DNA of 64,000 nt from an uncultured Acidobacteriota bacterium. GTDB lineage: Bacteria; Acidobacteriota; Thermoanaerobaculia; UBA5066; Gp7-AA6. The notes under the pieces are model-generated. The model did not search any database. It saw only the letters and a list, made by a program, of their open reading frames with translations, and had not been told where the DNA came from. The stretch is taken from NCBI GenBank assembly GCA_963764715.1, contig CAVXTP010000009.1, positions 1-64,000 of the forward strand, read 5' to 3'. Numbering within the stretch: the first letter of the stretch is position 1; every line of letters begins with the position of its first letter. Shown here one piece after another: positions 3,279-28,607 of this stretch. The position numbers and the translations under genes are program-made.

Positions 3279-3386
3279 TCAGTCCATCCCCGTCTTCGCA
3301 TGAGGTTCCCGGACTTCCCTGGACCGGGGGGAACCCACCTGGCGCAACGCGGTCGTCAAGGCGTTCTCGCGAAGGAACCGACGCAT
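3279..3386 (-). pseudogene. DUF6766-like remnant (N- and C-termini fused in frame)
   Basis: MRRFLRENALTT-ALRQVGSPRSREVREPHAKTGMD resembles both ends of DUF6766 membrane proteins with the middle missing. Confidence 0.55.
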
Positions 3387-3506
3387 GACAGGCTCTCGCC
3401 GGGTTTTCATGTGAATGGGTGCCCTTGAATGAAGACCGGCCCCGTCGGGCAGGGGTCCTGATTTCGAACGGCCCTCTCCCGGAGGGAGGGTTCGAAGATC
3501 CCGAAG

Positions 3507-3522
3507 TGCATGCCGTGTGCCA
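3507..3522 (-). promoter_or_regulatory. Sigma54 -24/-12 promoter
   Basis: TGGCACACGGCATGCA on the minus strand, upstream of the DUF6766 remnant and AI-2E gene. Confidence 0.75.
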
Positions 3523-3583
3523 TCCCGGGCGAACGACCCGGGCAGACGCCGACATCGCGGGGACCCGCGCGGACGAGGAGGAC

Positions 3584-5422
3584 TCAGGCCGGCGGGCCGG
3601 GCTGCAGGCCCGACGCCGGAGGCAGGAGAGCCGTTCGGGTCCGGGTCTCACGCTTGTGGGCGCTTTTCGCCGGCAGGCGGACGGTGAAGGTGATCCGCCC
3701 GTCGCCGCACGCGACCCGGATCGAGCCGCCGTGGGCCCGGACGATCTCGCGGCTGATGTAGAGGCCGAGGCCCAGGCCGCGGGACGGCCGGCGCTGCTCG
3801 CCGGTTCCCCGGCGGAAGGGCTCGAAGATGGCGTCCCGCGTGGCCTCCGGGATCTCCGGGCCCCGGTTGGAGACCTCGAGGACGGCGTCGTCGCCGTCGC
3901 GGGACGTCGTGATCTCGACGGGCTCGGCCGCCGAGCCGTGGTCGAGGGCATTGACGACCAGATTCGAGACGACCTGCGCGAGGCGGTCGGCGTCCCACTC
4001 CCCGGACAGATCCTCCCCCTGGCCGAACCGGAATCGGCCGGGGGACTGCGCCTCGATCTCGCCGAGGACGGTCCGGCAGACCGCCCGCAGGTCGCAGGGG
4101 TGGGGGGAGATCTCGATCCCGCCCCCGAGGCGGGTCCGCGTGAAGTCGAGGAGCTGGCCGATCATGCGGGTCATCCGGTCGCCGCTGCCGGCCATCCGCG
4201 TGACGACGTGCTGGAGGGACTCGGGAGCGTGGCGCCGGAGGTAGAAGAGCGAGGCGGTGATCGCGTTCAGCGGGTTCCGCAGGTCGTGACCGAGCGTCGC
4301 CAGGAACATCTCGCGCGTCCGTTCGCGGTCGCGCTCGATCTCGCGCCAGACGCTGAGGTCGCGCGCCGTCTTCGAGACGGCGATGATCTTCCCCGTCTCG
4401 TCGCGGACCGGCGAGGCGGTGACGGAGACCTCGATCAGCGTTCCGTCCTTGCGGCGCCGGATCGTCTCGTAGTGCTCGACGCGCTCCCCGCGCGCGATTC
4501 GCGAGATGATCCCGAGGTAATCCTCGCTGCGCTCGAGCGGCATGAGGATCTGGATCGACCGGCCGATCATCTCGTCGGCGCTGTATCCGAAGAGCCGCTC
4601 GGCCGCCGAGTTCCAGGAGAGAACGCGGCCTTCGAGATCCTTGGAGATGATCGCGTCGTCGCTCGAGCTCACGATGGCCGCGAGCTGGCGCGCGGCCTGC
4701 TCGCCGACGCGGCGATCGGTGACGTTCGCGGCGACGCCGGTCACCTGGAAGACCCGGCCGCCCTTCGAGATCGCGCGTCCCTGGGCATTGATCCACTGGA
4801 CGGAACCGACGGGCGGCTGGATGCGAAAGCTCAGGTCGAAGTCGGCGCCCTCGCGCACCGCGCGATCCAGGGCGTCTTCCACGCGGGGAGCATCATCCGG
4901 GCAAACGAATCGCAGGAATCCGCGGATGCCGTCGCCCAAGGATCCGCGCGCCAGCCCGAGAACGGCCTCGAAGTTCGAGGACCAGGTCGCCTTGCCGGAG
5001 GCGACGTCCACAGTCCAGTAGCCCATGTGCGCCGCGTCGAGAGCCTGGTCGAGGGTCTCCTTTCGGGCATCCGCCAGCTCCCGGGCGCGTCGCGCCTGTT
5101 CGATCGCGACCACAATGGTGGCGCCGACCGGGAGAAAGAGCGCGTACGCGGCCCAGTCGCTCGGCCCCGACATCCACCATCGGATGCGCGGCTCGAAAAC
5201 GAGCCCCCCGAGAATGGAGGAAGCCGCGAGCGCGAAGAACCCGGGCCCGAGCCCGCCGAGCCAGCTCGCGACCATGATCGCGGGAAAGAAGTAGAGGAAC
5301 GGCAGACGCGCGCCTCCGAGGGGAATCGTGACGACGCGGAGAAGCTGGGCGAGCAGGACCGCCGCGAACGCAACCGCGTAACGGCTCGCGGTCGAGGAGA
5401 GGAAGCTGCGACGCGGATTCAT
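3584..5422 (-). CDS. Membrane sensor histidine kinase (DUF4118-PAS-PAS-HisKA-HATPase)
   Basis: TM N-terminus, two PAS domains, GHDLRNPL H-box, GLGLGL G2 box. Confidence 0.92.
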   Translation of the reverse strand: MNPRRSFLSSTASRYAVAFAAVLLAQLLRVVTIPLGGARLPFLYFFPAIMVASWLGGLGPGFFALAASSILGGLVFEPRIRWWMSGPSDWAAYALFLPVGATIVVAIEQARRARELADARKETLDQALDAAHMGYWTVDVASGKATWSSNFEAVLGLARGSLGDGIRGFLRFVCPDDAPRVEDALDRAVREGADFDLSFRIQPPVGSVQWINAQGRAISKGGRVFQVTGVAANVTDRRVGEQAARQLAAIVSSSDDAIISKDLEGRVLSWNSAAERLFGYSADEMIGRSIQILMPLERSEDYLGIISRIARGERVEHYETIRRRKDGTLIEVSVTASPVRDETGKIIAVSKTARDLSVWREIERDRERTREMFLATLGHDLRNPLNAITASLFYLRRHAPESLQHVVTRMAGSGDRMTRMIGQLLDFTRTRLGGGIEISPHPCDLRAVCRTVLGEIEAQSPGRFRFGQGEDLSGEWDADRLAQVVSNLVVNALDHGSAAEPVEITTSRDGDDAVLEVSNRGPEIPEATRDAIFEPFRRGTGEQRRPSRGLGLGLYISREIVRAHGGSIRVACGDGRITFTVRLPAKSAHKRETRTRTALLPPASGLQPGPPA

Positions 5423-5429
5423 CGACCTC

Positions 5430-5909
5430 CTACCTTCGGAGACTCTCCACCAGGGCGAGAAGGCGGGCGTAGTTCACGGGCTTGACGAAGAGGCCGGCGT
5501 CCCGGACGCGCGCCGGAGCGTCCACCGAGGCCGAAGCCGTCACGATGGCCACGGGAATCTGCGCGAACCGGGGGTCGGACGCCAGGCGCCGGCAGAGCTC
5601 CCAGCCGTCCATCACGGGCATCCGCAGGTCGAGGAGGATGAGCGACGGCCGCGCACCGTCCTCGAGCAGGTCGAGGGCCTCGCGCCCGTGCCGCGCGCGG
5701 AGCACCGCCACCTCCTCGCCCTCGAGAAGCTCCGCGACGGCCTCGAGCGTGTCGGGCTCATCCTCCACCACCAGAACGGCAAACCCCTCCTCGGGGTCGA
5801 GGTCGCGGCGGTCCGCGGGGCCGCTGCCCGGCCCTGGCCCGTCGCCGGAATGGCGGCCGTGTTCAGGGGCGGTCATGCGACCAGGGAAGGCTTCCCGGGA
5901 CGCTTCCAT
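5430..5909 (-). CDS. Single-domain response regulator
   Basis: VLVVEDE..ILLDLRMPVMDG..FVKPV; start could be 5909 or 5876. Confidence 0.88.
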   Translation of the reverse strand: MEASREAFPGRMTAPEHGRHSGDGPGPGSGPADRRDLDPEEGFAVLVVEDEPDTLEAVAELLEGEEVAVLRARHGREALDLLEDGARPSLILLDLRMPVMDGWELCRRLASDPRFAQIPVAIVTASASVDAPARVRDAGLFVKPVNYARLLALVESLRR

Positions 5910-6000
5910 TGCGGGGGAGCTTACGCCGAAAGGGGCGCTCCCCCCCTCCGGCGCCGGACGCTGTTTCGTGGACAAAAGAAGGCCTCCCGGCCGGTCTGGT

Positions 6001-6016
6001 TGCAAGGAGCGTACCG
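6001..6016 (-). promoter_or_regulatory. Sigma54 -24/-12 promoter
   Basis: CGGTACGCTCCTTGCA upstream of the RR-HK pair. Confidence 0.65.
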
Positions 6017-6285: not shown

Positions 6286-6489
6286 CTATGTCTTCTTCGA
6301 TCCGCCCTTCTTCCGGGGGACCCTGGCGCCCGCCTTGCGGGCCTCCGAAAGCCCGATCGCGATGGCCTGCTTGCGGCTCGTGACCTTCTTGCCGGAGCGC
6401 CCCGATCTCAGCTTGCCGCGCTTCTTCTCGTGCATCGCGCGCTCGACCTTCTCACTCACTTTCTTTCCGTATTTTCGAGTCGCTGCCAT
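6286..6489 (-). CDS. DUF6496 family small basic protein
   Basis: KVERAMHEKKRGKLRSGRSGKKVTSRKQAIAIGLSEARKAG; GGAGG RBS. Confidence 0.9.
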   Translation of the reverse strand: MAATRKYGKKVSEKVERAMHEKKRGKLRSGRSGKKVTSRKQAIAIGLSEARKAGARVPRKKGGSKKT

Positions 6490-6514: not shown

Positions 6515-6530
6515 AGCAAGAGCCGTTCCG
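6515..6530 (-). promoter_or_regulatory. Sigma54 -24/-12 promoter
   Basis: CGGAACGGCTCTTGCT, 25 bp upstream of the DUF6496 ATG. Confidence 0.75.
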
Positions 6531-6571: not shown

Positions 6572-7357
6572 TCAGGCCGGGACTTCCGCCGCCAGGCTCC
6601 GGGAGGCGCGGGACGCGCGAACGGTCCTCTTGCCGGCGGAGGCCACGACGACTTCGTCCCTCGGCTCGCGGGCCGCGTCGAGGATGGCCTCGACCACCGG
6701 ACGGGGGTCGCGAGCCGTCGGCGGCTCGAGGATCGGTCCGCGGTCGCCGGCCCCGTGCCGGAGAAACGCCGTGTCGTGGACGTCGGGGAGGATGGTGCAG
6801 ACATGGATGTCGCGCGCCGCGTCCCCCTCCTCCTCGAGCTCGAGGCGAAGGGCCGCGGAAAGGCCGACCACGCCGTGCTTGGCCGCCGCGCAGGACGCGT
6901 AGAAGGGCGCCGGGATCTTTCCGATCACCGAGGCGAGGTTGATGAGCGTCCCGCTCTTCTGCCTGTGGAACTCGCGCAGGGCGACGTAGCTTCCGTAGAC
7001 GGTCCCGAGCAGCGTCGTGTCGATGACCTGAACGTGGTCCTCCAGCGGAACGACCTCGAATCGGCCCACGGTCCCCGCGCCGGCGTTGTTGATCCACACG
7101 TCGATCCGGCCGAACCGGTCGACGGTCTCGCGGCCGAGCTCCGCGACGTCGATCGGGTCGCCGACGTCGATTTCCTTCGACAGGGCCTCGCCGCCCGCCG
7201 AGGCACAGGCCGCTTCGACCTGGAGGATCTCTTCCCGGCCGCCGACGCCGAGGGCGACCGACGCCCCGGCCCGGGCGAAGGCCACGGCGGCTCCGCGGCC
7301 GAAGCCGCTCGAGGCGCCGGTGATGACGACGATCTTGCCGCGCAGGTCGGTCACCAT
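6572..7357 (-). CDS. SDR family oxidoreductase (catalytic Tyr apparently replaced)
   Basis: TGASSGFG and NNAG motifs; the YxxxK position reads CAAAK. Confidence 0.85.
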   Translation of the reverse strand: MVTDLRGKIVVITGASSGFGRGAAVAFARAGASVALGVGGREEILQVEAACASAGGEALSKEIDVGDPIDVAELGRETVDRFGRIDVWINNAGAGTVGRFEVVPLEDHVQVIDTTLLGTVYGSYVALREFHRQKSGTLINLASVIGKIPAPFYASCAAAKHGVVGLSAALRLELEEEGDAARDIHVCTILPDVHDTAFLRHGAGDRGPILEPPTARDPRPVVEAILDAAREPRDEVVVASAGKRTVRASRASRSLAAEVPA

Positions 7358-7968
7358 GTCTCCCTCCGCGCCGCGCGCCCCTGGGGGCGGTCGACGAGCC
7401 TCGCTTTCGCCTGTCGCAGTCGCGCTCCGAGCTCCTCGAGCTTCGCGGGCGGCCAGGCCCGCTCGATCTCGGCGAACAGGTCTCGCTCCTCCTCGGCCCA
7501 CTCGCGCAGCACGATGCGCGACAGCACGGCGACCTTGGCTTCGTACCGGGCGTCGAATGGCGAGAGCGCGCCGATCTCCCGCGCCAGTCCCCGGATGATC
7601 CGGTGGGCCTCCTGGGATTCCGCCAGGAGCGCGTGGATGTGAACGTCGCGGATTGCGCGGCAGGCGGGAACGAAGACGCGGTCGAGGAGGCGGGTGTGGA
7701 TCTCGAGCAGCCGGCGCACCTGGCCGACGATGTCCCGCCGGCTGCGGCCGTCGCGGGCCTCGACGTCGTCGAGCCGCCGGAGCAGCGCTCGCACGACCTG
7801 GTGCTCGTGGGAGAGGAGGCGCGTGGCGCTCAGGTCGCCCTCGGCACGGCGCGTCAGCATGTTGACCACGCGGGCCAGCGGGCGCGCCGGGTCCGCGGTC
7901 GACCCCCGCACGGGTTTCGAGGCCGTCCGCCGCCGGCCGGGAACGCGCGGTTTCGGGAGATCGGGCAT
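7351..7968 (-). CDS. Hemerythrin-like (HHE) domain protein, degenerate ligands
   Basis: LLSHEHQVV..LEIH..ESQEAH..EEERDLF..LEELGARL pattern. Confidence 0.7.
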   Translation of the reverse strand: MPDLPKPRVPGRRRTASKPVRGSTADPARPLARVVNMLTRRAEGDLSATRLLSHEHQVVRALLRRLDDVEARDGRSRRDIVGQVRRLLEIHTRLLDRVFVPACRAIRDVHIHALLAESQEAHRIIRGLAREIGALSPFDARYEAKVAVLSRIVLREWAEEERDLFAEIERAWPPAKLEELGARLRQAKARLVDRPQGRAARRETW

Positions 7969-7995: not shown

Positions 7996-8011
7996 AGCAA
8001 GAGCCGTGCCT
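7996..8011 (-). promoter_or_regulatory. Sigma54 -24/-12 promoter
   Basis: AGGCACGGCTCTTGCT. Confidence 0.8.
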
Positions 8012-8075: not shown

Positions 8076-8846
8076 ATGTCACTCGTCAACTACCGCAAGC
8101 GGCGTCGCTTCCAGGTGACGCCGGAGCCGCGCGGCCGCAGCCCCCGCCCGCGCCGCTCGGGCCTGCGCTACGTGATCCAGAAGCACCGCGCGACGGCGCT
8201 CCACTACGACTTCCGGCTGGAGTGGAAGGGCGTGATGCTCTCCTGGGCCGTCCCGAAGGGACCGTCGCTCGATCCGTCCGTCAAGCGCATGGCGATGCCG
8301 ACGGAGGAGCATCCCATCGAATACAACAAGTTCGAGGGCGTCATCCCCGAGGGCGAGTACGGTGGAGGGACCGTGATGATCTGGGACCGCGGAACCTGGA
8401 CTCCCGAGACCGAGGACGTGGACGACGGGCTGAAGAAGGGGGAGCTGAAGTTCCGGCTGGACGGGGAGAAGCTCCACGGCTCCTGGGTGCTCGTCCGCAC
8501 GCGGCGGCCCGGGGAAAAGCGCCCCGCCTGGCTCCTGATCAAGCACCGCGACGACGGCGCGAGCAAGCGCGACATCGCCGACGAGGAGCCGCGCTCCGTC
8601 GTTTCGCATCGCCTGCTCGTCGAGATCGCGCGGGACGAGGGCGGCAACATGGAGAAGGCGGCCGACGGCGATCCGCCCGCGCTCCTGCGCCGCATGCTGG
8701 AATCGCCGGAGCGCGTCATGCCGGCGTCACGCCGCCGGAAGAAGTCGGTCTGGCACTCGGACCGCGAGCCCGCGCGCGCGAAGAAGAAGAAATCGACGCC
8801 GCTCCGCGCCCGAAAGAAGGCGCCCCGGGCTTCCCGGAGCGCCTGA
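8076..8846 (+). CDS. Stand-alone LigD 3'-phosphoesterase (DNA ligase D N-terminal domain)
   Basis: YVIQKHRATALHYDFRLE..SWAVPKGPSLDP..TEEHP..GEYGGGTVMIWDRG. Confidence 0.95.
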   Translation: MSLVNYRKRRRFQVTPEPRGRSPRPRRSGLRYVIQKHRATALHYDFRLEWKGVMLSWAVPKGPSLDPSVKRMAMPTEEHPIEYNKFEGVIPEGEYGGGTVMIWDRGTWTPETEDVDDGLKKGELKFRLDGEKLHGSWVLVRTRRPGEKRPAWLLIKHRDDGASKRDIADEEPRSVVSHRLLVEIARDEGGNMEKAADGDPPALLRRMLESPERVMPASRRRKKSVWHSDREPARAKKKKSTPLRARKKAPRASRSA

Positions 8847-8931: not shown

Positions 8932-9231
8932 TCAGCCCCGATCGTGCCCGGCGACCTTGACGATCTTGTTGTAGAGGCCGAGGACGAGAAGGGTCGGCGC
9001 CCACTGGCCGATGAAATTGCTCAGGTGCCTGGTCTTCTTGTTGCCCGAGATCTGCAGGGCGAGCGAGAGGGCCATCGAGCCGACGGAGGCCCACAGGAAG
9101 ACGTCCGAGGGAAGTTGCGCTGTCTTCGATTCGATGGCCCGGGCCACCGGGCCTTCCTTCTGCTCCATGGCTTCGATCGCCTCTTCGGGATCGTGCGATT
9201 CGAACTGTCCGCTCTTGACACGTGGTTCCAT
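8932..9231 (-). CDS. Conserved small membrane protein (stress-associated)
   Basis: EGPVARAIESKTAQLPSDVFLW..FIGQWAPTLLVLGLYNKIVK; GGAGG RBS. Confidence 0.85.
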   Translation of the reverse strand: MEPRVKSGQFESHDPEEAIEAMEQKEGPVARAIESKTAQLPSDVFLWASVGSMALSLALQISGNKKTRHLSNFIGQWAPTLLVLGLYNKIVKVAGHDRG

Positions 9232-9272: not shown

Positions 9273-9288
9273 TGCAGTCCGTGTGCCA
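9273..9288 (-). promoter_or_regulatory. Sigma54 -24/-12 promoter
   Basis: TGGCACACGGACTGCA. Confidence 0.75.
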
Positions 9289-9333
9289 CGCCCGCTGAAA
9301 TCCGCCGGAAGCCCGCCGCCGGCGGTCCGCAAC

Positions 9334-9349
9334 TGGCAAGCGGCTTGCT
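9334..9349 (+). promoter_or_regulatory. Sigma54 -24/-12 promoter
   Basis: TGGCAAGCGGCTTGCT. Confidence 0.8.
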
Positions 9350-9374: not shown

Positions 9375-9887
9375 ATGAAGCCCATGAAAGCCGCCGAGGC
9401 ATCGCTTCTCACCAGCTCCCGCGGGGTGCGCCCGGAGCCGGAAGACATCTTCGTTTTCGGAATCACACCCGAAGGCGAGGTCCCGCTGATCGTTTCCGAC
9501 GAAGGCATCCGGCTGCCCGGGTGTTCTGCGGGGCCTGCGGCTCTGCGCGACGTGCAGGAGCGGCTTCGGGAGGAAACGGGTTGCGAGGCGGCCGAGTTTG
9601 TCCTGATGACGATCCCGCGTCCCGCCACGCGGGGGGCGTCGGGGCCGACCATCCTGCTCGCGCCGCGACTGTCGCGGGTCGGGCCCGGGACGAGAGGTCT
9701 GGAGCTCGTCCCTCTTCCCGATCTCCTGTCCTGGCTGAATTCACGTCGCGGGGCGGTGGTCGACCCGGCGGTCTCGCTCGGCGTGATGATGGCCCAACGG
9801 CACTTTCCGCGCTGGGCCCTCGCGAGACTGCAGGAGGCGCTGCGGCATCTGCGCGCCGCTCGGCCCCACGCGGCGGCCGCCGGATGA
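9375..9887 (+). CDS. Divergent NUDIX-like protein
   Basis: RLPG..VQERLREETGCEA is a partial Nudix box. Confidence 0.55.
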   Translation: MKPMKAAEASLLTSSRGVRPEPEDIFVFGITPEGEVPLIVSDEGIRLPGCSAGPAALRDVQERLREETGCEAAEFVLMTIPRPATRGASGPTILLAPRLSRVGPGTRGLELVPLPDLLSWLNSRRGAVVDPAVSLGVMMAQRHFPRWALARLQEALRHLRAARPHAAAAG

Positions 9888-10546
9888 GCGAGGCTACGGT
9901 TTCCCCGTCCACGCTGATCGATCAGTGCGAGGTTCTGATCCGGACGCTGGATCCCGACGGTCGGTGCGATTACGTCAACGCCGCCTGGAGCCGCTTCTCC
10001 GGGCGGAGCGACTCCCGGGAGCTCGGGGACCGCTGGACGGCCGGGATTCATCCGGACGACCGGCCGGCCGCGCTGACGGCGATCGCGCGGAGCGTCAGGC
10101 GCCGCTTGCCCTACGAAGTCGAATACCGGCTGCTCCGCTGGGACCGGGCCTATCGCTGGGTTCTCGACCGCGGCGTTCCGTTGCGGATCGACGGGGCCTC
10201 CCGCGGCTTCGCCGCCGCCGCCGTTGACATTCACGACCGGCGCGAGGCGATGCGCGCGCAGGAAGCGTCGCTCCGGATGATCGCGGCCGAGCTGCGCACG
10301 CCGCTGCAGGCGGCCCGCGTCCTGGCGGCGCTCGCCCGGCGGCACTGCGAGGCGGGCGAAGTCCCGGACGAGACGATCTTCGAGAAGCTCGACGAGCAAT
10401 TCGAACGATTCCACGACCTCCTCTCGCCGCTCTCGTTCGGTGAGCTCGGGCGGGGCGAGACCCGCGAGCCCGCGCGACACGTCGCGAGCGGCCCCCGCGA
10501 GTCTCCACGCGAGGTCTCGAGGTCCGACGGAAGGAGGGCCGGATGA
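9884..10546 (+). CDS. PAS domain plus His-less HisKA-like helix (pseudokinase, no HATPase)
   Basis: PAS with IHPDD..EYRLLR..YRWV; H-box reads IAAELRTPL; ATGA overlap with the upstream gene. Confidence 0.75.
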   Translation: MSEATVSPSTLIDQCEVLIRTLDPDGRCDYVNAAWSRFSGRSDSRELGDRWTAGIHPDDRPAALTAIARSVRRRLPYEVEYRLLRWDRAYRWVLDRGVPLRIDGASRGFAAAAVDIHDRREAMRAQEASLRMIAAELRTPLQAARVLAALARRHCEAGEVPDETIFEKLDEQFERFHDLLSPLSFGELGRGETREPARHVASGPRESPREVSRSDGRRAG

Positions 10547-10924: not shown

Positions 10925-10940
10925 TGGCGCGAAAATCGCA
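10925..10940 (+). promoter_or_regulatory. Sigma54 -24/-12 promoter
   Basis: TGGCGCGAAAATCGCA. Confidence 0.6.
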
Positions 10941-17781: not shown

Positions 17782-17785
17782 GTAA

Positions 17786-20904: not shown

Positions 20905-20920
20905 GGGCACGGGGGTTGCA
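20905..20920 (+). promoter_or_regulatory. Sigma54 -24/-12 promoter
   Basis: GGGCACGGGGGTTGCA. Confidence 0.75.
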
Positions 20921-21311: not shown

Positions 21312-21327
21312 CGGAACGGGATTTGCA
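21312..21327 (+). promoter_or_regulatory. Sigma54 -24/-12 promoter
   Basis: CGGAACGGGATTTGCA. Confidence 0.7.
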
Positions 21328-21364
21328 CGGCCTGCAGCCGTCGAAGCATCGAGGCCTTCGACGA

Positions 21365-21380
21365 CGGCACGGTTTGTGAA
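21365..21380 (+). promoter_or_regulatory. Sigma54-like promoter, -12 variant
   Basis: CGGCACGGTTTGTGAA (GG-N10-GA). Confidence 0.5.
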
Positions 21381-21425: not shown

Positions 21426-21677
21426 ATGGCGGATCGCGATCGAGAGAACAAGCCCGAGCAGGGGCCGGCCGGTCAGGGCCGGAGCTCGCAGCATGGACAG
21501 CCGCAGGGACAGCAGGGCGGCCAGAGTGGCCAGGGCGGCCGTTCCGGCAACCCGGGCGGTCAGACCACGCAGGGCCAGCGTGACGAGAAGGGCCAGATGA
21601 CCGAGGGCGGGAACGCCGGAACCGGCAAGTCCCCCCGCGGCGGCTCGAGCTCGGGATCGGACCAGGAAGAGGAGTAA
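21426..21677 (+). CDS. Gly/Gln-rich hydrophilin-like disordered protein
   Basis: AAGGAGGT RBS; almost no hydrophobic residues. Confidence 0.85.
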   Translation: MADRDRENKPEQGPAGQGRSSQHGQPQGQQGGQSGQGGRSGNPGGQTTQGQRDEKGQMTEGGNAGTGKSPRGGSSSGSDQEEE

Positions 21678-21724: not shown

Positions 21725-24340
21725 TCAGCCCCGTTTTTCGTTTTGTTCCACGGTGGCCGCGGTCGAGCCCAGCCGGTCGAGAACCGAGACGAGCCGGTCG
21801 AGGTTGAGGGGCTTGACCAGGTGCTCGGCGAATCCGAGCTTTCGGCTGCGCTCGAGATCGGACTCCATTCCGTAGCCGCTGAGGACGACGCCGCGAAGGT
21901 TCGGGTGCGCGGCCTTGAGCCCGGCGAAGAGCTCGAGCCCGCTGCCATCCGGCAGCCCGACGTCCGTGACCAGGATCTCCGCCGGCTGCTCCCGGAAGGC
22001 GCGGCGGGCGGCCTCGACGCCGTCGGCGAGCCTCACGTCGAACCCGGCCTCTTCGAGCAGCTCGCGGACGGCGAGACCCGAGTCGACGTCGTCTTCGACC
22101 AGCAGGACCGGGAGGCGCCCCCGCGTCTCGAGCCGGTGCCGGCCTGGTCCCTCGGGCGCCACGCCCGCCGGGCGCTCGACGGTCGTTGCGAGCTCGATCG
22201 AGAACGTTGCCCCGCGGCTCTCGCCCTCGCTTTCGGCGGAAATCGATCCGCCGTGCAGCTCGACCAGATTGCGGGCGATCGCGAGGCCGAGGCCGAGGCC
22301 GCCGGCGCGGCGCCTGGCCGTGGCGTCTCCCTGCTCGAAGGCGTCGAAGATCCGGGCCAGCAGGTCCTTCCGGATTCCCTGGCCCGTGTCGCGGACGAGG
22401 ACGCGGATGCGACCGGGGGACGCATTCTCGGAGCGGAGCGTGACGCGTCCGCCCGGCGGCGTGAACTTCGCAGAGTTCTGCAGGAGGTTCCAGAACACCT
22501 GCTGGAGCCGGGCCCCGTCACACATGCAGAAGTGATCGGACGCCTCGAGCTCGGACACGAGGTCGACCCCGCGGCGGAAGAACTCGCTCCGCGCGCTCTG
22601 GACGACGCTTCGGAGGACGTCGTGGAGGTCGAGCGGCTCGCGGTCGAGCTCGATCTTGCCGGCCGAGATGCGGGTCAGGTCGAGCAGGTCGTCGATCAGC
22701 CGGGCCTCGAGCTCCACGTTGCGCCGGATCATCGCGAGCGACTCGGCCATGCCGGGGCCGAGGTCGGGCCGCCGCTCGAGGCGATGGACCGAGGCCATGA
22801 CCGGCGTCAGGGGAGTCCGGAGCTCGTGGGACAGGGTCGCGAGGAAGCGGTCCTTCGCGGCGCTCGCCTCCTCGGCGCGGTGGCGGGCTTCCTCGAGCTC
22901 CCGGCTCTGGCGGCGTCGCTCGGTGACGTCGCGGATCAGGCGCGAGAGACCGATGATCCGTCCCGCCGAGTCCCGGATCGCCGAGAGGTTGACGACGACG
23001 TCGATCCAGCGTCCGTCCCGGGTGCGGCGGCGCGCGTCGAACTCGTCGATCCGCCGGCCGGCCAGGAGCTCCGCGGTGAGGCGGGGAGTCGGGTCCGGCG
23101 TGTCGGGCGGCGCGAGCTCGACCATCTTGCGGCCGATCATCTCGGCGGCCGTGAATCCGAAGAGCGCCTCCGCGCCCGGGTTCCAGTCGGTGATGACGTT
23201 GTCGACCGTCTCGGCCACGATGGCGTATTCGACCGACGCCGCGATCGCGGCGAGCCGCTGCGCCTCCCGTTCCGCCCTGCGCTGGGCCGCTATGTCGCGG
23301 AACACCAGGACCACGCCGTCGAGCCGGCCGCGCGCGTCCCGGATCGGCGCCGCGCTGTCGGCGACGGGCGTCTCGGTCCCGTCGCGCGCGAGCAGGAGAG
23401 TGTGGCTGGCGAGGCCCACGATCTCGCCCTGTCCGATGACCCGCCGCACGGGGCTCTCCATCGGCGAACGGCTCGTCTCCTCGACGATGCGGAAGATCTC
23501 TTCCACCGGGCGGCCCGAGGCCTCGGCGAGGCTCCAGCCGGTCAGCCGCTCCGCGACCGCGTTGAGGAAGGTGACCCGGCCGTCGGCGTCGGTCGCGAGG
23601 ACCGCGTCCCCGATGCTCCTCAGCGTCGTTCGCAGCCGCTGCTCGCTCTGCCGAAGCGCGGCCTGCGCCCGGGCCCGGGCGAGTTGGTCTTTCCGTACCA
23701 CGAAGACGAACGCGGCGAAGAGCGCGAGCGACGCGAGGCTCCCGGCGACCGCGGCGGCGAGGACGCGACGGGAGGCGGCGACGGCCTGCCGGGAGCGCTC
23801 CTCCAGAAGCGCCGTCTCCTCGCTCCGCATCGCCGCGAGCGACACCCGGATCCGGTCCATCGTGTTCCGGCCGAGCCCGGTCTGGACTCTCTGGAGGGCC
23901 GCGGCCCGGTCGCCGGAGGAGAAGAGCCGGATCGTCTCGGCGAGCTCCGCGAGCTTGGCCTCGACGAGGACCTCGACGTCGCCGAGGCGCTTTTGCCACG
24001 CGGGACGGCCCGCCGACAGCGCGTGAAGCCGGGGAAGGTGGGTGCGGACGGCTGCGACTCCCTGTTCGTAGGTCCCCAGATAGCCCGCATCCCCGGTCAG
24101 CAGGTAACCGCGCTGGCCGGTCTCGGCGTCCTTCAACGCGGAAAGGGCCTCCTCGAGCTCTCCGAGGCCGCTCCACGCCGACTCCACCCGGTTCGTCTGC
24201 TCCGCGAGATTCCGGGTGTTGAGGATCACGACCCAGCCGAAAGCGCTGACGGCCGCGACGACCAGGGTCGCGCCGACCGCGATCCGGCGGGATCCCGGGG
24301 GAATCGAGCCGACAGCCAAGGTCCCTCGATTCTGCATCAA
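21725..24340 (-). CDS. CHASE3-PAS-PAS hybrid histidine kinase
   Basis: DAETGQRGYLLTG CHASE3 motif, two PAS domains, SHELRTPL, C-terminal receiver. Confidence 0.95.
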   Translation of the reverse strand: MMQNRGTLAVGSIPPGSRRIAVGATLVVAAVSAFGWVVILNTRNLAEQTNRVESAWSGLGELEEALSALKDAETGQRGYLLTGDAGYLGTYEQGVAAVRTHLPRLHALSAGRPAWQKRLGDVEVLVEAKLAELAETIRLFSSGDRAAALQRVQTGLGRNTMDRIRVSLAAMRSEETALLEERSRQAVAASRRVLAAAVAGSLASLALFAAFVFVVRKDQLARARAQAALRQSEQRLRTTLRSIGDAVLATDADGRVTFLNAVAERLTGWSLAEASGRPVEEIFRIVEETSRSPMESPVRRVIGQGEIVGLASHTLLLARDGTETPVADSAAPIRDARGRLDGVVLVFRDIAAQRRAEREAQRLAAIAASVEYAIVAETVDNVITDWNPGAEALFGFTAAEMIGRKMVELAPPDTPDPTPRLTAELLAGRRIDEFDARRRTRDGRWIDVVVNLSAIRDSAGRIIGLSRLIRDVTERRRQSRELEEARHRAEEASAAKDRFLATLSHELRTPLTPVMASVHRLERRPDLGPGMAESLAMIRRNVELEARLIDDLLDLTRISAGKIELDREPLDLHDVLRSVVQSARSEFFRRGVDLVSELEASDHFCMCDGARLQQVFWNLLQNSAKFTPPGGRVTLRSENASPGRIRVLVRDTGQGIRKDLLARIFDAFEQGDATARRRAGGLGLGLAIARNLVELHGGSISAESEGESRGATFSIELATTVERPAGVAPEGPGRHRLETRGRLPVLLVEDDVDSGLAVRELLEEAGFDVRLADGVEAARRAFREQPAEILVTDVGLPDGSGLELFAGLKAAHPNLRGVVLSGYGMESDLERSRKLGFAEHLVKPLNLDRLVSVLDRLGSTAATVEQNEKRG

Positions 24341-24400: not shown

Positions 24401-25036
24401 TCAGGCGACCGTGGCGGCGTCGCGGATCGCCACGTCGAGCGAGCGGACCGCGGCGAATCGCGCGGCCACGTCTTCCCAGTTCCAGACGTTCCAGATCGCG
24501 GCGAAGTAGTCCGCCTTCTGGTTCTTGTACTGGAGGTAGTAGGCGTGCTCCCACGCGTCGAGGACGAGGATGGGAACGCCGCCCTGGCTCAGGTTCGACT
24601 GGTGGTCGTAGATCTGGGTCGTCAGGAGCTTGCCGGCGAGCGGCTCCCAGATCAGGGCGGCCCAGCCGGAGCCCATGATCGTCGACGCGACCTCGTTCAT
24701 CTGCCGCTTGAACTTTTCGAAGCTTCCGAAGTGCTCGTCGAGGGCGGCGCGCAGCTCGCCGTCCGGCTGGCCTCCGCCGCGCGGCGTGAGGTTCTGCCAG
24801 AAGAGCGAGTGCAGGACGTGGCCGGACAGGTTGAACGCCAGGGCTTTCTCGAGCGCTCCGACGCGCGTGAAGTCCTCCTTGTCGCGCGCCTCGCCGAGCC
24901 TTTCGAGGGCCTGGTTGGCGCCCTTGACGTACGCCGCGTGGTGCTTGTCGTGGTGGAGCTCCATGATGTTTCCGGAGATGTGCGGCTCGAGCGCGCCGAA
25001 GTCGTACTGAAGATCGGGAAGGGAGTAAGTTGGCAT
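24401..25036 (-). CDS. sod: Fe/Mn superoxide dismutase
   Basis: [29 protein letters not shown]. Confidence 0.97.
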
Positions 25037-25059: not shown

Positions 25060-25075
25060 AGCGAAAATCGTGCCG
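25060..25075 (-). promoter_or_regulatory. Sigma54 -24/-12 promoter of sod
   Basis: CGGCACGATTTTCGCT. Confidence 0.75.
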
Positions 25076-25086
25076 TGCGCGCTCCG

Positions 25087-25102
25087 CGGCACCCGTCTTG
25101 CA
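25087..25102 (+). promoter_or_regulatory. Sigma54 -24/-12 promoter
   Basis: CGGCACCCGTCTTGCA. Confidence 0.8.
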
Positions 25103-25128: not shown

Positions 25129-25314
25129 ATGCTCAAGATGGCCTTGATCTTCTTCCTGGTCGGTCTCGCCGCGGCGCTCCTCGGATTCACGGGGATCGCG
25201 GGCGCCTCGTTCGCGGTGGCCAAGGTCCTGGCGGCCGTGTTCGCGGTGCTCTTCCTCGTGTTCCTGGTCCTGGGGCTCGCGGGCGTCCGCAAGCTGACGA
25301 GTCCGGCGCGCTGA
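25129..25314 (+). CDS. DUF1328 (YtjA-like) small membrane protein
   Basis: MLKMALIFFLVGLAAALLGFTGIAGASFAVAKVL. Confidence 0.92.
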   Translation: MLKMALIFFLVGLAAALLGFTGIAGASFAVAKVLAAVFAVLFLVFLVLGLAGVRKLTSPAR

Positions 25315-25382: not shown

Positions 25383-25706
25383 CTACGCCGTCGGCGGCGT
25401 CTTGATCTGCAGGTTGTTGATCACCTTGACGACCCCCTGGACCGAGCGGGCCTCGGCCTCCGCCTCGGCCTTGACCTTGGCGTTCGGGACCTCGCCGGCG
25501 AGGGTCACGACGCCGTTGGTCACGTTGATGTCGACGTTGACGATGTTGGAGAAGCGGTCGGCCGTGAGCTTGGCCTTCACCGAGGTATGGATCGCGCTGT
25601 CGTCGACCTGCTGACCCGGGCTCTGGGTGGTGCTGCAGGCGGCGATGCTCAGGGCGAGCACGGACGCAAGACCGGCGGCGAGAACTCCCGAAAGGCGTTT
25701 CATCAT
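25383..25706 (-). CDS. BON domain lipoprotein (OsmY-like)
   Basis: IAAC lipobox; DDSAIHTSVKAKL..GVVTLAG..GVVKVINNL. Confidence 0.93.
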   Translation of the reverse strand: MMKRLSGVLAAGLASVLALSIAACSTTQSPGQQVDDSAIHTSVKAKLTADRFSNIVNVDINVTNGVVTLAGEVPNAKVKAEAEAEARSVQGVVKVINNLQIKTPPTA

Positions 25707-25780: not shown

Positions 25781-25796
25781 AGCACGGGTCGTGCCA
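25781..25796 (-). promoter_or_regulatory. Sigma54 -24/-12 promoter of the BON gene
   Basis: TGGCACGACCCGTGCT. Confidence 0.78.
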
Positions 25797-25811: not shown

Positions 25812-25892
25812 AAAAGAAAAAGGCCGCTAACGCCTCCGATCGGATCGGAAACTCGCGGCCGCAGCGAAGGGGATGGGACTCTCGAGACCCGC
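25812..25892 (-). ncRNA. Candidate ~80-nt sigma54-dependent sRNA
   Basis: Lies between its own promoter (25903-25918) and a GGCCGC..GCGGCC-TTTTTCTTTT terminator; no ORF. Confidence 0.55.
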
Positions 25893-25902
25893 CGACGGGA
25901 GA

Positions 25903-25918
25903 AGCAACCCTCCTGCCA
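25903..25918 (-). promoter_or_regulatory. Sigma54 -24/-12 promoter
   Basis: TGGCAGGAGGGTTGCT. Confidence 0.72.
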
Positions 25919-25920: not shown

Positions 25921-26421
25921 TCAGGCGCGCGAGGACTTCTTCGGCGCGGGGGCCTTCGCCTTGCTCCGCTCACGCGCTTCCTCGATCGAGTGGGACTCGA
26001 GCACGTCGCCCTGCTTCGACGCGATCCGGGCGAGCTTGGAGAAGTGCCGGTGCAGCACCTCGATCTCCTGCTCGTTGAGGTTCTCGACGTCGATCAGGTG
26101 ATTGCTCGCGCCCTGCATCGCGGCGACGATTTCGTTCAGCTTGAGGTGGATGGCCTTGGACTCCTTGTTCTGCGCCCTCTGGATCAGGAAGACCATCAGG
26201 AAGGTCACGATCGTCGTGCCGGTGTTGATGACGAGCTGCCAGGTGTCCGAGTAGCCGAAGATCGGGCCCGTGAGGGCCCAGGCGAGGATGATCGCCGCGG
26301 CCACTCCGAACGCCGAGGAGCTCCCGGCCCACTGGGTCGCCGCGAGGGACAGCGTCTCGAGCATCTCCCCGGTGCGCGACCGGCGCTCCCCGCCGCCCGT
26401 GGCGGAACGGCGGCCGCTCAT
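25921..26421 (-). CDS. Low-affinity iron permease (Fet4-like) family protein
   Basis: GPIFGYSDTWQLVINTGTTIVTFLMVFLIQ..AIHLKLNE. Confidence 0.93.
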   Translation of the reverse strand: MSGRRSATGGGERRSRTGEMLETLSLAATQWAGSSSAFGVAAAIILAWALTGPIFGYSDTWQLVINTGTTIVTFLMVFLIQRAQNKESKAIHLKLNEIVAAMQGASNHLIDVENLNEQEIEVLHRHFSKLARIASKQGDVLESHSIEEARERSKAKAPAPKKSSRA

Positions 26422-26912
26422 GACGCGGCTCGCACGCGATCCGGGCCCGCGGCCGGAGCCGGAGTGTCCTCGAGGACCCCGACCCGGTGCTCGTAAGCGA
26501 GCTTTCCGCCGATCCAGCCTCCGGTCCCGAGCAGCGCGAAGCCGAGCAGCGCCAGGCCGAACACGGCCGGCCAGCGGGAGGGCGGGAGGGCCGCCGCGTT
26601 GCGGCGCAGGAAGAAGCTCGAGGCGTAGAGGATGCAGGCCGAGAAGTTGACGACCGCGTGGACGGTCGCGAGGCGGAACGCGCGGCTGCTCATCCGGACG
26701 CCGAGATAGTCCACGGCGCCGAAGACCGCCGCGAGAATCGCGAAGATCAGACCGATGCCGATGCACGTGAACGAAAGGTCGTACCAGAACGGGTCCTCCG
26801 GGCTGACGGTGTGGAGCACGTCGCCCGCGAACGCGATCACGAACGCCCCGATCGGGACGGGTACGAGCAGCGGATGGATCGGGTGGTTTCCGATCGCGGC
26901 CTTGCTCTTCAT
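26418..26912 (-). CDS. DUF2231 membrane protein
   Basis: HPIHPLLVPVPIG..GAVDY..HAVVN..GGWIGGKLAY. Confidence 0.92.
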   Translation of the reverse strand: MKSKAAIGNHPIHPLLVPVPIGAFVIAFAGDVLHTVSPEDPFWYDLSFTCIGIGLIFAILAAVFGAVDYLGVRMSSRAFRLATVHAVVNFSACILYASSFFLRRNAAALPPSRWPAVFGLALLGFALLGTGGWIGGKLAYEHRVGVLEDTPAPAAGPDRVRAAS

Positions 26913-26934: not shown

Positions 26935-26950
26935 TGCAACAGGGGTGCCA
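26935..26950 (-). promoter_or_regulatory. Sigma54 -24/-12 promoter
   Basis: TGGCACCCCTGTTGCA. Confidence 0.82.
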
Positions 26951-27034: not shown

Positions 27035-27050
27035 TGGCACCGGGATTGCT
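27035..27050 (+). promoter_or_regulatory. Sigma54 -24/-12 promoter
   Basis: TGGCACCGGGATTGCT; predicted +1 at 27061. Confidence 0.82.
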
Positions 27051-27060
27051 ACACCCAGGA

Positions 27061-27190
27061 AGCAAGGTTCCGTGGAAACTCGAACCGAGCCCTCCAAGAC
27101 ATCCCGCCCCACTCGGACCCGCCCCTTCGGGGGCGGCAGTCCCTTCCCCGGATAGGGGACCGGGCGTGCGGGTTCGCGACGGATCCTGCT
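27061..27190 (+). ncRNA. Candidate ~130-nt structured sigma54-dependent RNA
   Basis: 5' AGCAAGGTTCCGT pairs with 3' ACGGATCCTGCT; nested CGAACC/GGTTCG; cUUCGg hairpin; starts exactly at the predicted +1. Confidence 0.6.
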
Positions 27191-27244
27191 CGACGGCGCA
27201 ACCGCCCGTGGAAGAAAAACTTCCTCTCGCGCAGCGCCACCGGC

Positions 27245-27260
27245 TGGCATGGTGGATGCA
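27245..27260 (+). promoter_or_regulatory. Sigma54 -24/-12 promoter
   Basis: TGGCATGGTGGATGCA. Confidence 0.75.
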
Positions 27261-27284
27261 ACGAGCCTCGTCGGGAGGATCGTC

Positions 27285-27878
27285 ATGAAAAGGGAGCAGG
27301 TGAACGAGCTTTTGCTGCAGGCCCTCGAGACCGAGCTCGGCGGCGTCCAGGTCTACACGAACGCCGTCCGGTGCGCGGTCAACGAGGACCTGCGTGAGGA
27401 ATGGGAGAAGTACCTCGAGCAGACCACCAACCACGTCGAGATCCTGAAGGACGTCTTCGGGAAGCTCGGCCTCGACCCGGATGCCCAGACGCCGGGGCGG
27501 CAGATCGTCCGCCACACGGGCGAATCGCTCGTGCAGGCCATGAAGATGGCGAAGCAGGCGGGCGATCCCAACGCCGCCCAGATCGTGGCTGCGGAGTGCG
27601 TCGTCCTCGCGGAGACCAAGGACCACCTCAACTGGGAGCTGATCGGCGCCGTCGCCGAGAAGGGCGCCGGCAAGAACAAGGAAGTCCTCAAGGCGGCCTG
27701 CGACGAGGTCGAGGAGCAGGAGGACGAGCACCTGTACCACACGACGGGATGGTGCCGGGAGCTCTGGATCGAGTCGCTCGGGATGCCCGCGGTCCTTCCT
27801 CCTCCCGAAGAGGAGAAGGAGGTCAAGACCGCGATCGGCGCCGCCCGCGCCAAGCAATCGCGCGAGGAGCTTCTGTGA
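27285..27878 (+). CDS. Ferritin-like / DUF892-type stress protein
   Basis: QALETELGG..QTTNH..AETKDHLNW..EQEDEHL. Confidence 0.88.
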   Translation: MKREQVNELLLQALETELGGVQVYTNAVRCAVNEDLREEWEKYLEQTTNHVEILKDVFGKLGLDPDAQTPGRQIVRHTGESLVQAMKMAKQAGDPNAAQIVAAECVVLAETKDHLNWELIGAVAEKGAGKNKEVLKAACDEVEEQEDEHLYHTTGWCRELWIESLGMPAVLPPPEEEKEVKTAIGAARAKQSREELL

Positions 27879-28414
27879 ACGACGCGCGCGGCCGGACGGA
27901 GGAGAAGCTCGAGCGCCTGTACGAGCTCGTCCAGGACATCAAGATCGCCATGCTGACGACGCGGCGCCGCGACGGCTCGCTCGTCTCCCGGCCCATGGCG
28001 ACGCAGAGGCGCGCCGACGGCGCGCATTTCTGGTTCGTCACGGCCCGGGGGGTTCCGAAGCTCGACGAGATCGCGGTCGATCCGAACGTCAACCTCGCCT
28101 ACCTGCGCCCCAACGGCCGGGAGTGGGTTTCCGTCTCGGGCGTCGCGCGGATCAGCCGCGCTCGCGCGAAGATCCGGGAGCTCTACGAGCCCGACTGGAA
28201 AATCTGGTTCCCGGACGAGGGCGGCGCGCGCAACGGCGGCCCCGAGGATCCCCGCATGCTGCTCCTGGGAGTCGAGGCCCGGACGGCCCACTTCCTGACG
28301 ACCGACAAGCCGGCGCCCGTCGTGCTCTTCGAGTACGTCAAGGGCCTCGTCACGCGCCGGATGCCGGAGATCGGCGAGGTCGAGACGGTCTCGGCGGGCG
28401 AGCTCCATGACTGA
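27875..28414 (+). CDS. Pyridoxamine 5'-phosphate oxidase-like general stress protein
   Basis: IKIAMLTT..LVSRPMAT..WVSVSG..WFP..GPEDP. Confidence 0.9.
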   Translation: MNDARGRTEEKLERLYELVQDIKIAMLTTRRRDGSLVSRPMATQRRADGAHFWFVTARGVPKLDEIAVDPNVNLAYLRPNGREWVSVSGVARISRARAKIRELYEPDWKIWFPDEGGARNGGPEDPRMLLLGVEARTAHFLTTDKPAPVVLFEYVKGLVTRRMPEIGEVETVSAGELHD

Positions 28415-28607
28415 GCGGGAGCCGGCCGGGGGCGGCGCCCGGCCGATCGACGATCCGATCCCGGAGGAGCCGATCATCGACGAGCCCGGGCGGGTCGTTC
28501 CCGTCGTCGATCCCCGTCGGCCCGATGCGCCCGCTCCGGTCCGCGAGCCGGCGCCTTCGACGGGGCCGCCGCAGACGCCGGGCGGCGGGACCGTCTCCCC
28601 GGGCTAA
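28407..28607 (+). CDS. Small Pro-rich hypothetical protein
   Basis: Overlaps the upstream stop and fills the gap to the ABC operon. Confidence 0.5.
   Translation: MTEREPAGGGARPIDDPIPEEPIIDEPGRVVPVVDPRRPDAPAPVREPAPSTGPPQTPGGGTVSPG

Follow-up and report, generated by a model that had tools for sequence, protein, structure and literature searches.

The stretch of DNA analysed here, called the window below, covers the opening 64 kb of contig C9 in a Thermoanaerobaculia metagenome-assembled genome (4.36 Mb in 26 contigs, ~70% G+C, 96.8% complete), and the nearest public relatives of its proteins come from metagenome-assembled Acidobacteriota labelled Thermoanaerobaculia. Positions 3279-28607 of the window (~25 kb, 0.58% of the genome) form an island of small transcription units, sensor kinase genes and candidate -24/-12 promoters of the sigma-54 (RpoN) type. 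The island also encodes a regulator of the bacterial enhancer-binding protein (bEBP) family, P0002, that lacks a DNA-binding domain, and next to it a small DHp-only protein, P0003. Gene families were assigned by Pfam and NCBIfam, and the promoters were scored with a position weight matrix (PWM) trained on 18 island sites, which is circular for the island itself. The promoters, named by position and strand (for example 19238+), and the genes or open reading frames (ORFs) behind them are as follows.

3507-3522, minus strand: promoter of 18.3 bits before a 43-aa ORF (3279-3410) and an AI-2E family transporter gene (1956-3278; Pfam)
6001-6016, minus strand: promoter of 15.1 bits whose -24 element reads GGTAC, before the REC and PAS-kinase operon
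6515-6530, minus strand: promoter of 19.7 bits before a DUF6496 gene (6286-6489); site kept in 1 of 1 orthologue
7996-8011, minus strand: promoter of 19.9 bits before a hemerythrin-like gene (7351-7968) and an SDR gene (6572 to ~7340)
8076-8846, plus strand: LigD 3'-phosphoesterase domain protein (Pfam); the site 8034+ in front of it is unsupported
9273-9349, divergent pair: 9273- (14.1 bits) before the gene of a 99-aa protein (8932-9231) and 9334+ (18.9 bits) before a 170-aa ORF and a PAS protein (9375-10546)
10925-10940, plus strand: variant site TGGCGCGAAAATCGCA of 7.0 bits before an alpha/beta hydrolase gene (10954-11856)
11861-11876, plus strand: variant site GGCACGGTTCTTGAA of 10.5 bits, reading GA at -12, before the gene of a secreted 230-aa protein (p230) and a 59-aa membrane ORF
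17766-17781, minus strand: promoter of 15.7 bits before the GAF kinase operon
19238-19253, plus strand: promoter of 20.0 bits, 6 nt after the bEBP stop codon, before a DUF5670/lmo0937 gene (19302-19451)
20663-20678, minus strand: promoter of 19.7 bits before the gene of a Cys-rich 52-aa protein (Cys52; 20478-20636) and Ku (19640-20464)
20905-20920, plus strand: promoter of 18.3 bits before the gene of a 68-aa Thr-rich lipoprotein (20967-21173)
21312-21380, plus strand: a 19.2-bit site, 21312+, and a 13.1-bit site reading GA at -12, 21365+, before the gene of an 83-aa Gly/Gln-rich hydrophilic protein (21426-21677)
25060-25102, back-to-back divergent pair: 25060- before Fe/Mn superoxide dismutase (SOD; 24401-25036) and 25087+ before DUF1328 (25129-25314)
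25781-25796, minus strand: promoter of 15.2 bits before a BON lipoprotein gene (25383-25706)
26935-26950, minus strand: promoter of 17.1 bits before DUF2231 (26418-26912) and a low-affinity iron permease (25921 to ~26355)
27245-28607, plus strand: promoter 27245+ of 17.1 bits before DUF892 ferritin-like (27285-27878), PNPOx-like (~27902-28414) and a 66-aa ORF

The sigma-54 consensus has GG and GC dinucleotides 10 nt apart within TGGCAC-N5-TTGCW. Island sites fit it position by position, with GG and GC invariant and 10 nt apart except in the two GA variants. At every scored island site with an ORF behind it, the first G of GG lies 26-113 nt (mostly 35-63 nt) before the start codon, which has a Shine-Dalgarno motif; no ORF follows 25903- or 27035+. 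The first-pass annotation of this DNA had listed about 22 such promoters, 18 of which score 14-22 bits by the PWM. Support by score, position or conservation extends to 21 of the 22, and the one that fell is 8034+, which scores -5.7 bits and has no informative orthologue. Units without a supported site are the LigD phosphoesterase gene, the DHp-bEBP operon and the second genes of operons.

Shuffle and spacing controls were both far exceeded, in line with the same annotation's expectation of a motif density above that of control DNA. With at most one mismatch, the loose pattern TGGCACNNNNNNTGC matches the window 26 times, compared to 8.27 ± 3.16 times in 100 dinucleotide-preserving shuffles of the window (largest 17), and 22 of the 26 matches fall in 3279-28607 (counted from the listing). 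When GG and GC are kept fixed and up to one mismatch is tolerated across the remaining seven positions, TGGCAC-N5-TTGCW has 42 matches in the genome, 12 of them in the island, whereas spacers of N3, N4, N6 and N7 give 37, 10, 11 and 12 genome matches and none in the island. At up to two mismatches the island holds 22 sites of this form, at spacing 5 only. Moreover, 18 of the 55 genome-wide PWM matches of at least 14 bits lie in the island, and no other 25-kb window of the genome exceeds three matches of at least 13 bits, compared to 18 in the island. Overall, the island contains roughly two-fifths of the candidate sigma-54 promoters of the genome.

Could the motif instead be bound by another DNA-binding protein or sigma factor, or result by chance from the composition of a 70% G+C genome? 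In keeping with that idea, strict GGCAC-N5-TTGC is no commoner genome-wide (18 matches, five of them in the island) than GGCAC and TTGC at the twelve other spacings from 0 to 12 (5-23 matches), and the promoters are predicted from sequence. However, those other spacings give nothing in the island save one match at spacing 0, so only spacing 5 is enriched there, none of the 100 shuffles reaches the observed count, and the strand and start-codon distance of the sites, like their agreement with the consensus, are as expected of promoters. Outside the island, 18 of 30 near-consensus sites fall in the ~20% of the genome called non-coding on a crude map. The genes behind such sites comprise two for pseudopilins, which are a classical sigma-54 target, and those for CBS, ferritin, PGPGW and PilZ proteins, phosphoenolpyruvate carboxykinase (PEPCK), a cysteine-desulfurase-like enzyme and a MacB-type permease. 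We therefore regard a non-sigma-54 origin of the motif as extremely improbable. The genome also has rpoN, as the first-pass annotation presumed, in one copy (Sigma54_DBD match of 225.5 bits).

Conservation was assessed in 19 distinct related loci, each ~20 kb long and with a bEBP of 67-94% identity, and a site was taken as a match of at least 11 bits, at most 300 nt upstream and on the right strand. The unpublished genomes G004 and G104 are excluded from the promoter counts and included in the family tally of the DHp gene given below. A site precedes the GAF kinase gene in 12 of 13 loci (26-67 nt upstream), DUF5670 in 12 of 17, Cys52, the first gene of the Ku operon, in 6 of 7, and p230 also in 6 of 7. 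The Thr-rich lipoprotein gene has one in 3 of 3 loci, BON in 2 of 2, SOD in 3 of 4, DUF1328 in 1 of 2 and DUF2231 in 1 of 4; the divergent sites 9273- and 9334+ recur in 1 of 1 locus and in 2 of 2, respectively. Neither the DHp gene nor the bEBP gene has a site in any of the 19 loci. For comparison, the chance of a match of at least 10 bits in a 310-nt upstream stretch is ~0.009, as calculated from 240 genome matches.

Ku, SOD and DUF892 were further compared across the order. Sites of at least 10 bits precede Ku orthologues (48-86% identical) in 14 of 18 loci that span three families, a count that leaves out two unpublished loci and L174, compared to none of nine Ku paralogues (32-36% identical). 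Their distance to Ku is 29-41 nt, rising to 203-213 nt in loci with the Cys gene in between. Among primary SOD orthologues, 8 of 13 have a site at 38-44 nt, compared to one of six second copies and none of eight distant homologues, and DUF892 orthologues carry one at 39-41 nt in 4 of 7 loci. Conservation before orthologues, which the first-pass annotation had named as a check, thus holds at fixed distances in as many as 19 related loci and across three of the order's families.

The low-scoring variants are conserved as well. The motif TGGCGYGAAAMTCGCA of site 10925+ precedes the orthologue in 3 of 3 informative relatives (L021, L022 and L129), in which the flanks diverge. Two sites that had already been singled out as GA variants, 11861+ (GGCACGGTTCTTGAA) and 21365+ (GGCACGGTTTGTGAA), carry GA instead of the near-invariant GC at -12; the former is conserved before 6 of 7 orthologues and the latter, the proximal of its pair, is kept in L021 and L131 (by eye). 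Such conserved -12 GA variants are odd for sigma-54. The start of p230, behind 11861+, is likely the ATG at 11920. In addition, a cluster on contig C13 (10900-18000) holds paralogues of BON (85% DNA identity), p230 (71%) and DUF5670 (83%), and within 20 kb no sigma-54 site reaches 10 bits; the motif is thus not tied to the gene families as such, and these paralogues may be differently regulated copies.

The regulatory proteins of the island are the following.

18010-19233, plus strand: bEBP P0002, 407 aa, with REC, sigma-54 AAA+ (GSFTGA loop), lid and an Arg-rich tail of ~30 aa; no HTH_8 (Pfam)
17786-18013, plus strand: DHp-only protein P0003, 75 aa, with the H-box FHDVATPLS and a weak HisKA match; its stop overlaps the bEBP start (ATGA)
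14881-17745, minus strand: hybrid kinase GAF-HisKA-HATPase-REC-REC (Pfam), heading an operon with the next kinase
12844-14853, minus strand: hybrid kinase REC-HisKA-HATPase-REC-REC (Pfam), syntenic in 13 loci
21725-24340, minus strand: hybrid kinase CHASE3-PAS-PAS-HisKA-HATPase-REC (Pfam), 60 nt downstream of SOD on the same strand
3584-5975, minus strand: REC-only protein (5430-5975) and DUF4118-PAS-PAS histidine kinase (3584-5422; Pfam)

The first-pass annotation missed these kinases and the island's own bEBP without a DNA-binding domain, the gene of which is hidden within a long open frame (13714-19233). Domain analysis of P0002 revealed a PF00158 match of 233 bits and an AAA_lid_14 domain. 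The window protein and 9 of 9 orthologues have GSFTGA or GAFTGA as the loop sequence, and 20 of 20 sequences keep the REC residues D8, D9, D51, T79 and K101. At the C-terminus, no PF02954 (HTH_8) match was found in P0002 at E <= 0.01, and the full-length AtoC/NtrC models of NCBIfam align to it only up to about position 392 of 461-463. PF02954 is listed for none of its 120 best homologues (74-91% identical), and all eight complete orthologues end in a Lys/Arg-rich tail. Of the other 11 bEBPs of the genome, eight have HTH_8, and among the three others one is truncated where its contig ends. P0002 is thus an activator of the NtrC family that is not enhancer-binding, because it has no C-terminal Fis-type helix-turn-helix (HTH). 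The P0002 clade is common in metagenomes, and its at least 120 clusters, 74-91% identical to P0002, are labelled "AtoC" or "DNA-binding NtrC family response regulator"; the latter label is wrong for proteins of the P0002 clade.

In the sister families, four f2 genomes and one f3 genome (G080) encode a bEBP orthologue of 458-488 aa (50-58% identical) with a clear Fis-type HTH, and another f3 genome (G153) encodes a 423-aa form with a basic tail. The HTH-bearing form is best read as the older state.

Comparison of the related loci also places P0003. His21 of its H-box is invariant in 20 of 20 sequences. In 11 of 19 loci the gene at the same place encodes a DHp+CA kinase of ~200 aa, and in the genus of the window and one other genus it encodes a DHp-only stub of 60-80 aa. 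We regard P0003, as judged by these relatives, as the remnant of a small histidine kinase. The DHp gene was found in 17 of 17 sampled genomes of the island's family (16 of 16 without G004), and the same query found it in none of 16 f2 genomes and in no other family of the class among 151 genomes, bar one weak match in G104. It adjoins the bEBP gene, as DHp stub or small kinase, in 19 of 19 loci and is accompanied by both hybrid kinases in 13, giving a syntenic core of kinases, small kinase, bEBP and DUF5670. Despite many hybrid histidine kinases, three of them in the island, no Hpt domain (PF01627) was found in the 96.8%-complete genome. A complex predicted for two copies of the 75-aa DHp protein and the bEBP receiver scored 0.59, compared to 0.19 for the best of three controls, with a predicted local distance difference test (pLDDT) of at least 86 for the partners and at least 93% of contacts agreeing between runs. 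The mark used for such predictions was attained for 116 of 157 solved complexes and for 2 of 215 mismatched pairs; with scores of up to 0.60, those attaining it were 18 of the 157 and both mismatches. As kinase-receiver pairs are textbook complexes, the prediction shows likeness at most, and this weak result is not used as evidence.

The spacing of the promoters bears on how they could be activated. The GG dinucleotides of 25060- and 25087+ are 14 bp apart, and those of divergent promoters in L021, L023 and L025 are 7-15 bp apart, the SOD/DUF1328 arrangement itself recurring in L021 at 7 bp. Moreover, 19238+, 11861+ and 25903- begin 4-6 nt past the preceding stop codon. Divergent promoters spaced at 7-15 bp offer no space between genes in which an enhancer could sit. 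A k-mer enrichment over 19 upstream regions gave no convincing shared upstream motif. The 7-mer GGACGGT, present in 7 of the 19 regions against 0.66 expected, was rejected as an enhancer: its 18 occurrences in the window are no enrichment over the 16.25 expected, and neither its position nor its orientation is constant.

These observations have to be set against the possibility that the promoters are served by several enhancer-binding bEBPs encoded elsewhere, with sites inside neighbouring genes, and that the island bEBP controls the kinase operon and DUF5670 only, so that there is no single regulon. PF00158 has 19 matches in the genome, 13 of them strong and one of these inside the island, so about 12 other bEBPs are at hand, most with HTH_8 as given above. 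Distant genera (L024, L026-L029, L120-L124 and L130) show only module-adjacent sites within 20 kb (0-2 at 13 bits or more), and the upstream excess of GGACGGT would also suit this explanation. However, that 7-mer is not enriched in the window and is fixed in neither position nor orientation, promoters so close to each other or to a stop codon leave enhancers no intergenic space, and the clustering of twenty promoters round one bEBP gene is hard to explain by distant activators. Control by several bEBPs from elsewhere is therefore, in our view, unlikely.

Of the cargo families named by the first-pass annotation, Ku, LigD phosphoesterase, BON, DUF1328, DUF892 ferritin-like, Fe/Mn SOD and PNPOx-like proteins are present in the island by Pfam, and GH15 is not, the single GH15 gene of the genome lying on contig C18. 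Its proposal that this lineage runs its stress response through RpoN gains support from the motif density, the presence of rpoN and the conservation of the sites, and the qualifier "general" comes from the cargo only. As for other stress sigma factors, the RpoS model matches only the RpoD-like gene, below its cut-off, and so does the SigB/F/G model; EcfG and PhyR were not searched for.

We propose, with a probability of roughly 0.6, that the island is the core of an RpoN regulon of stress-protection genes, run by an enhancer-independent bEBP under phosphorelay control. In this model, some 20 short -24/-12 promoters would drive one- and two-gene units, sensor kinases included. The GAF, CHASE3/PAS and PAS kinases, three of them hybrid, would sense different stresses and pass phosphoryl groups to Asp51 of the bEBP, probably with the DHp-only stub, the putative vestige of its cognate kinase, serving as a phosphotransferase in between. 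The AAA+ ring of the phosphorylated bEBP would then remodel sigma-54 closed complexes from solution. Since it has no DNA-binding domain, it would act on any sigma-54 closed complex, and promoters could therefore abut the preceding gene or stand back to back without an enhancer. The kinase operons have sigma-54 promoters and the DHp-bEBP operon has none, which would give positive feedback on the sensors and a constitutively made activator.

The proposed regulon could also be real, and run by the island bEBP, but narrower in purpose: it might support dormancy or persistence, a response to oxidative and metal stress, or the repair of DNA breaks while cells are not growing. The cargo indeed leans towards redox, metal and DNA repair functions (SOD, hemerythrin, DUF892, iron permease, Ku, LigD phosphoesterase and Cys52, which has a weak metallothionein likeness), and the hemerythrin-domain protein (7351-7968, minus strand) weakly matches the PA2171 ribosome-binding persister family of NCBIfam (63.9 bits, cut-off 190). 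The C13 paralogues of BON, p230 and DUF5670, which are without sites, fit a narrower programme as well. Nevertheless, BON, DUF1328, DUF5670 and hydrophilic Gly/Gln-rich proteins are typical of broad SigB or EcfG regulons, the diverse sensor domains (GAF, CHASE3 and PAS) suggest many inputs, and no RpoS or SigB-type sigma factor was found that would carry a general response. We consider a restricted programme of this kind quite improbable.

Several points weigh against a stress regulon run by P0002. The sequence shows the motifs with their excess, placement and conservation, the rpoN gene and the domain make-up; from these, the start sites and sigma-54 dependence, the choice of activator, the order of the phosphorelay and the induction by stress are inferred. 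An activator working from solution should cross-activate the promoters of the ~12 other bEBPs. About two dozen sigma-70 region-2 matches in the genome could include an EcfG-like stress sigma factor. Within the island, the LigD phosphoesterase gene and the DHp-bEBP operon have no supported sigma-54 site, and some promoters are poorly conserved (DUF2231 in 1 of 4 loci, DUF1328 in 1 of 2, SOD in 8 of 13). Sigma-54 sites also precede Ku where the best bEBP match keeps its HTH (G080). Finally, near-consensus sites with an N5 compared to an N7 spacer number 91-110 against 5-13 in three near-complete published genomes of the f3 genus g10 (G060, G080 and G151; HTH-bearing in G080).

The corresponding averages are 58 against 16 in the family of the island (16 genomes) and 36 against 17 in the HTH-bearing f2 family (17 genomes), so the g10 excess is about twice that of the window's family. 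Sigma-54 use seems unusually heavy across the order. That the regulon grew because the DNA-binding domain was lost is unsupported as a simple rule, the largest excess being found in HTH-bearing g10. Likewise, the Ku sites in the HTH-bearing family of G080 mean that domain loss is not needed for sigma-54 control of Ku. Taken together, domain loss neither created sigma-54 control nor simply tracks regulon size. We offer more tentatively, at somewhat below even odds, the wider claim that in one family of Thermoanaerobaculia sigma-54 and a single regulator without a DNA-binding domain together act like a stress sigma factor, that a gene would join the response by acquiring a 16-bp enhancer-less promoter, and that hybrid kinases would signal through a kinase decayed to a DHp-only phosphotransferase.

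Two promoters without an ORF behind them lead into stretches with RNA-like features.

27035-27150, plus strand: the strongest sigma-54 site of the genome (22.1 bits), then ~90 nt without an ORF and a CCGCCCC-TTCG-GGGGCGG hairpin
25903-25918, minus strand: promoter of 19.0 bits, 4 nt past the iron-permease stop codon, then ~85 nt to 25815 without an ORF, with a GGCCGC...GCGGCC stem and a T-run

The first stretch contains the C-rich runs CCCTCC and TCCCTTCCC, and promoter and stretch are conserved in two genomes of the same genus (89% over 89 nt and 78% over 105 nt); no covariation was seen in these three sequences. For 25815-25918, blastn found no homologue in the compared relatives. No Rfam family reached its gathering score in the window, and one match near the small-RNA candidates is at chance level (E 0.34). 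Both stretches are candidate sigma-54-dependent small RNAs.

Further observations concern the assembly and the surroundings of the island. The 170-aa ORF (9375-9887) and the PAS ORF (9521-10546) behind 9334+ overlap by 366 nt in different frames, both with tblastn matches in relatives, so the start of the PAS gene is miscalled or a frameshift is present. Positions 1-5474 of the window are 99.6% identical to positions 40336-45812 at the end of contig C20; from this identity over the first 5.5 kb, C9 and C20 probably abut or are strain variants. A ferritin gene on C20 (35577-36152), at a distance of 4.1 kb from the overlap, is preceded at 44 nt by a sigma-54 site of 14.2 bits, so the regulon would extend to the left of the window. 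A perfect-consensus sigma-54 site at 36758 on the minus strand (36745-36759) precedes the gene of a 157-aa lipoprotein of no known family. The second bEBP of the window (40135-41283, minus strand) has HTH_8, and its main frame lacks the first 46 positions of the AAA+ domain; since these match another frame at 40985-41137, a frameshift or sequencing error is suspected. The idea that the island is mobile was rejected: its G+C (0.68-0.73) is the same as in the rest of the window, synteny is kept within the family and no integrase is found among the scanned ORFs.

General stress responses are textbook examples of control by sigma-70-family factors (RpoS, SigB and EcfG), including the PhyR-NepR-EcfG regulon of Alphaproteobacteria, and sigma-54 normally serves single, tightly gated operons. 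In Sinorhizobium meliloti, stress-inducible NHEJ (non-homologous end joining) is said to be sigma-dependent. Full-text literature searches covering sigma-54 in general stress, NHEJ and desiccation, Acidobacteria and Thermoanaerobaculia, and bEBPs without a DNA-binding domain found nothing on a system like the present one, and no published description was found of how the abundant, mostly uncultured soil Acidobacteriota run a general stress response. The main text of a 2025 cross-phylum survey of sigma-54 regulons does not mention Acidobacteria, general stress, superoxide or desiccation (PMC12316311). The parts of the present system, -24/-12 promoters and a type Ic bEBP, are known. Their combination, that is, general-stress cargo, about 20 enhancer-less promoters in one island, a DNA-binding-domain-less activator among a dozen ordinary bEBPs, and a DHp-stub kinase, was not found in print, in line with the earlier impression that this architecture is uncharacterised in the group.

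If the model holds, sigma-54 would have been recruited as a global stress switch by removal of the activator's DNA-binding domain, giving a third route to a general stress response beside RpoS/SigB and EcfG. With such a switch, promoters could stand back to back or adjoin the stop codon before them, sigma-54 could drive small RNAs, and small units could fill a 25-kb island. The relatives form a natural series from HTH-bearing to HTH-less activator and from full kinase to DHp stub, which makes the evolution of regulon breadth testable, and about 20 promoters with one activator are a compact set for reconstitution in E. coli.

Compared to known stress regulons, the island resembles those of the SigB and EcfG type in its cargo (Ku/LigD, SOD, BON/OsmY-like, DUF1328, ferritin-like, PNPOx-like and small hydrophilic proteins) and in multi-domain kinases that feed a two-component step. 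An example is the SigB general stress regulon of Bacillus cereus, for which a hybrid kinase system, RsbK-RsbY, is described (PMC9912610). However, these regulons use sigma-70-family factors freed by partner switching, whereas the island has -24/-12 promoters and a proposed switch by an ATPase activator. Stress systems of sigma-54 and a bEBP, such as PspF/psp, RtcR/rtcBA, NorR and ZraR, each serve one or two operons via enhancers. The NCBIfam models of PspF, RtcR, NorR and ZraR match P0002 below their cut-offs, and none of these regulators runs a 20-promoter regulon of the general-stress type. DHp-type phosphotransferases of His-Asp phosphorelays are known from Spo0B and ChpT-like proteins. The H-box His of the DHp protein is invariant, and the protein has no CA domain in the genus of the window (CA is present in 11 of 19 relatives); phosphotransfer through it is proposed.

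The closest likeness is to activators that work from solution. FlgS-FlgR of Helicobacter and Campylobacter controls the sigma-54 flagellar regulon in this way, and FlgR, like P0002, is an NtrC-type response regulator without a DNA-binding domain. P0002 is not a FlgR orthologue, as the NCBIfam FlgR model gives 302.8 bits against a cut-off of 750. In Chlamydia trachomatis, a reduced genome encodes CtcC as its sole bEBP, and the genes that CtcC controls, for membrane and type III secretion proteins, form a developmental regulon. The CtcB-CtcC system is described there as a sigma-54 system whose REC and AAA+ bEBP has no DNA-binding domain (PMC7482065), and both CtcC and FlgR are listed as type Ic, DBD-less enhancer-binding proteins by Francke et al. 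2011 (PMC3162934). As far as these accounts go, CtcC resembles P0002 in being a response-regulator bEBP without a DNA-binding domain that is encoded beside its kinase and serves a whole sigma-54 regulon without enhancers. P0002 shares the type Ic architecture of REC and AAA+ with an adjacent DHp protein or small kinase, a likeness of architecture that does not imply orthology to CtcC or FlgR. It differs from CtcC in coexisting with ~12 other bEBPs, in having as partner a kinase reduced to a DHp stub (in the genus of the window), in lying among hybrid kinases and in the gathering of stress cargo in one island. DctD250, an engineered AAA+-only bEBP, is reported to activate the promoters of 11 different bEBPs without an enhancer, constitutively and ~10-fold more weakly than enhancer-bound NtrC (PMC3844500). 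Unlike DctD250, P0002 is natural and keeps a phosphorylation-controlled receiver, and would thus match the engineered "promiscuous bEBP" as its natural counterpart gated by phosphorylation.

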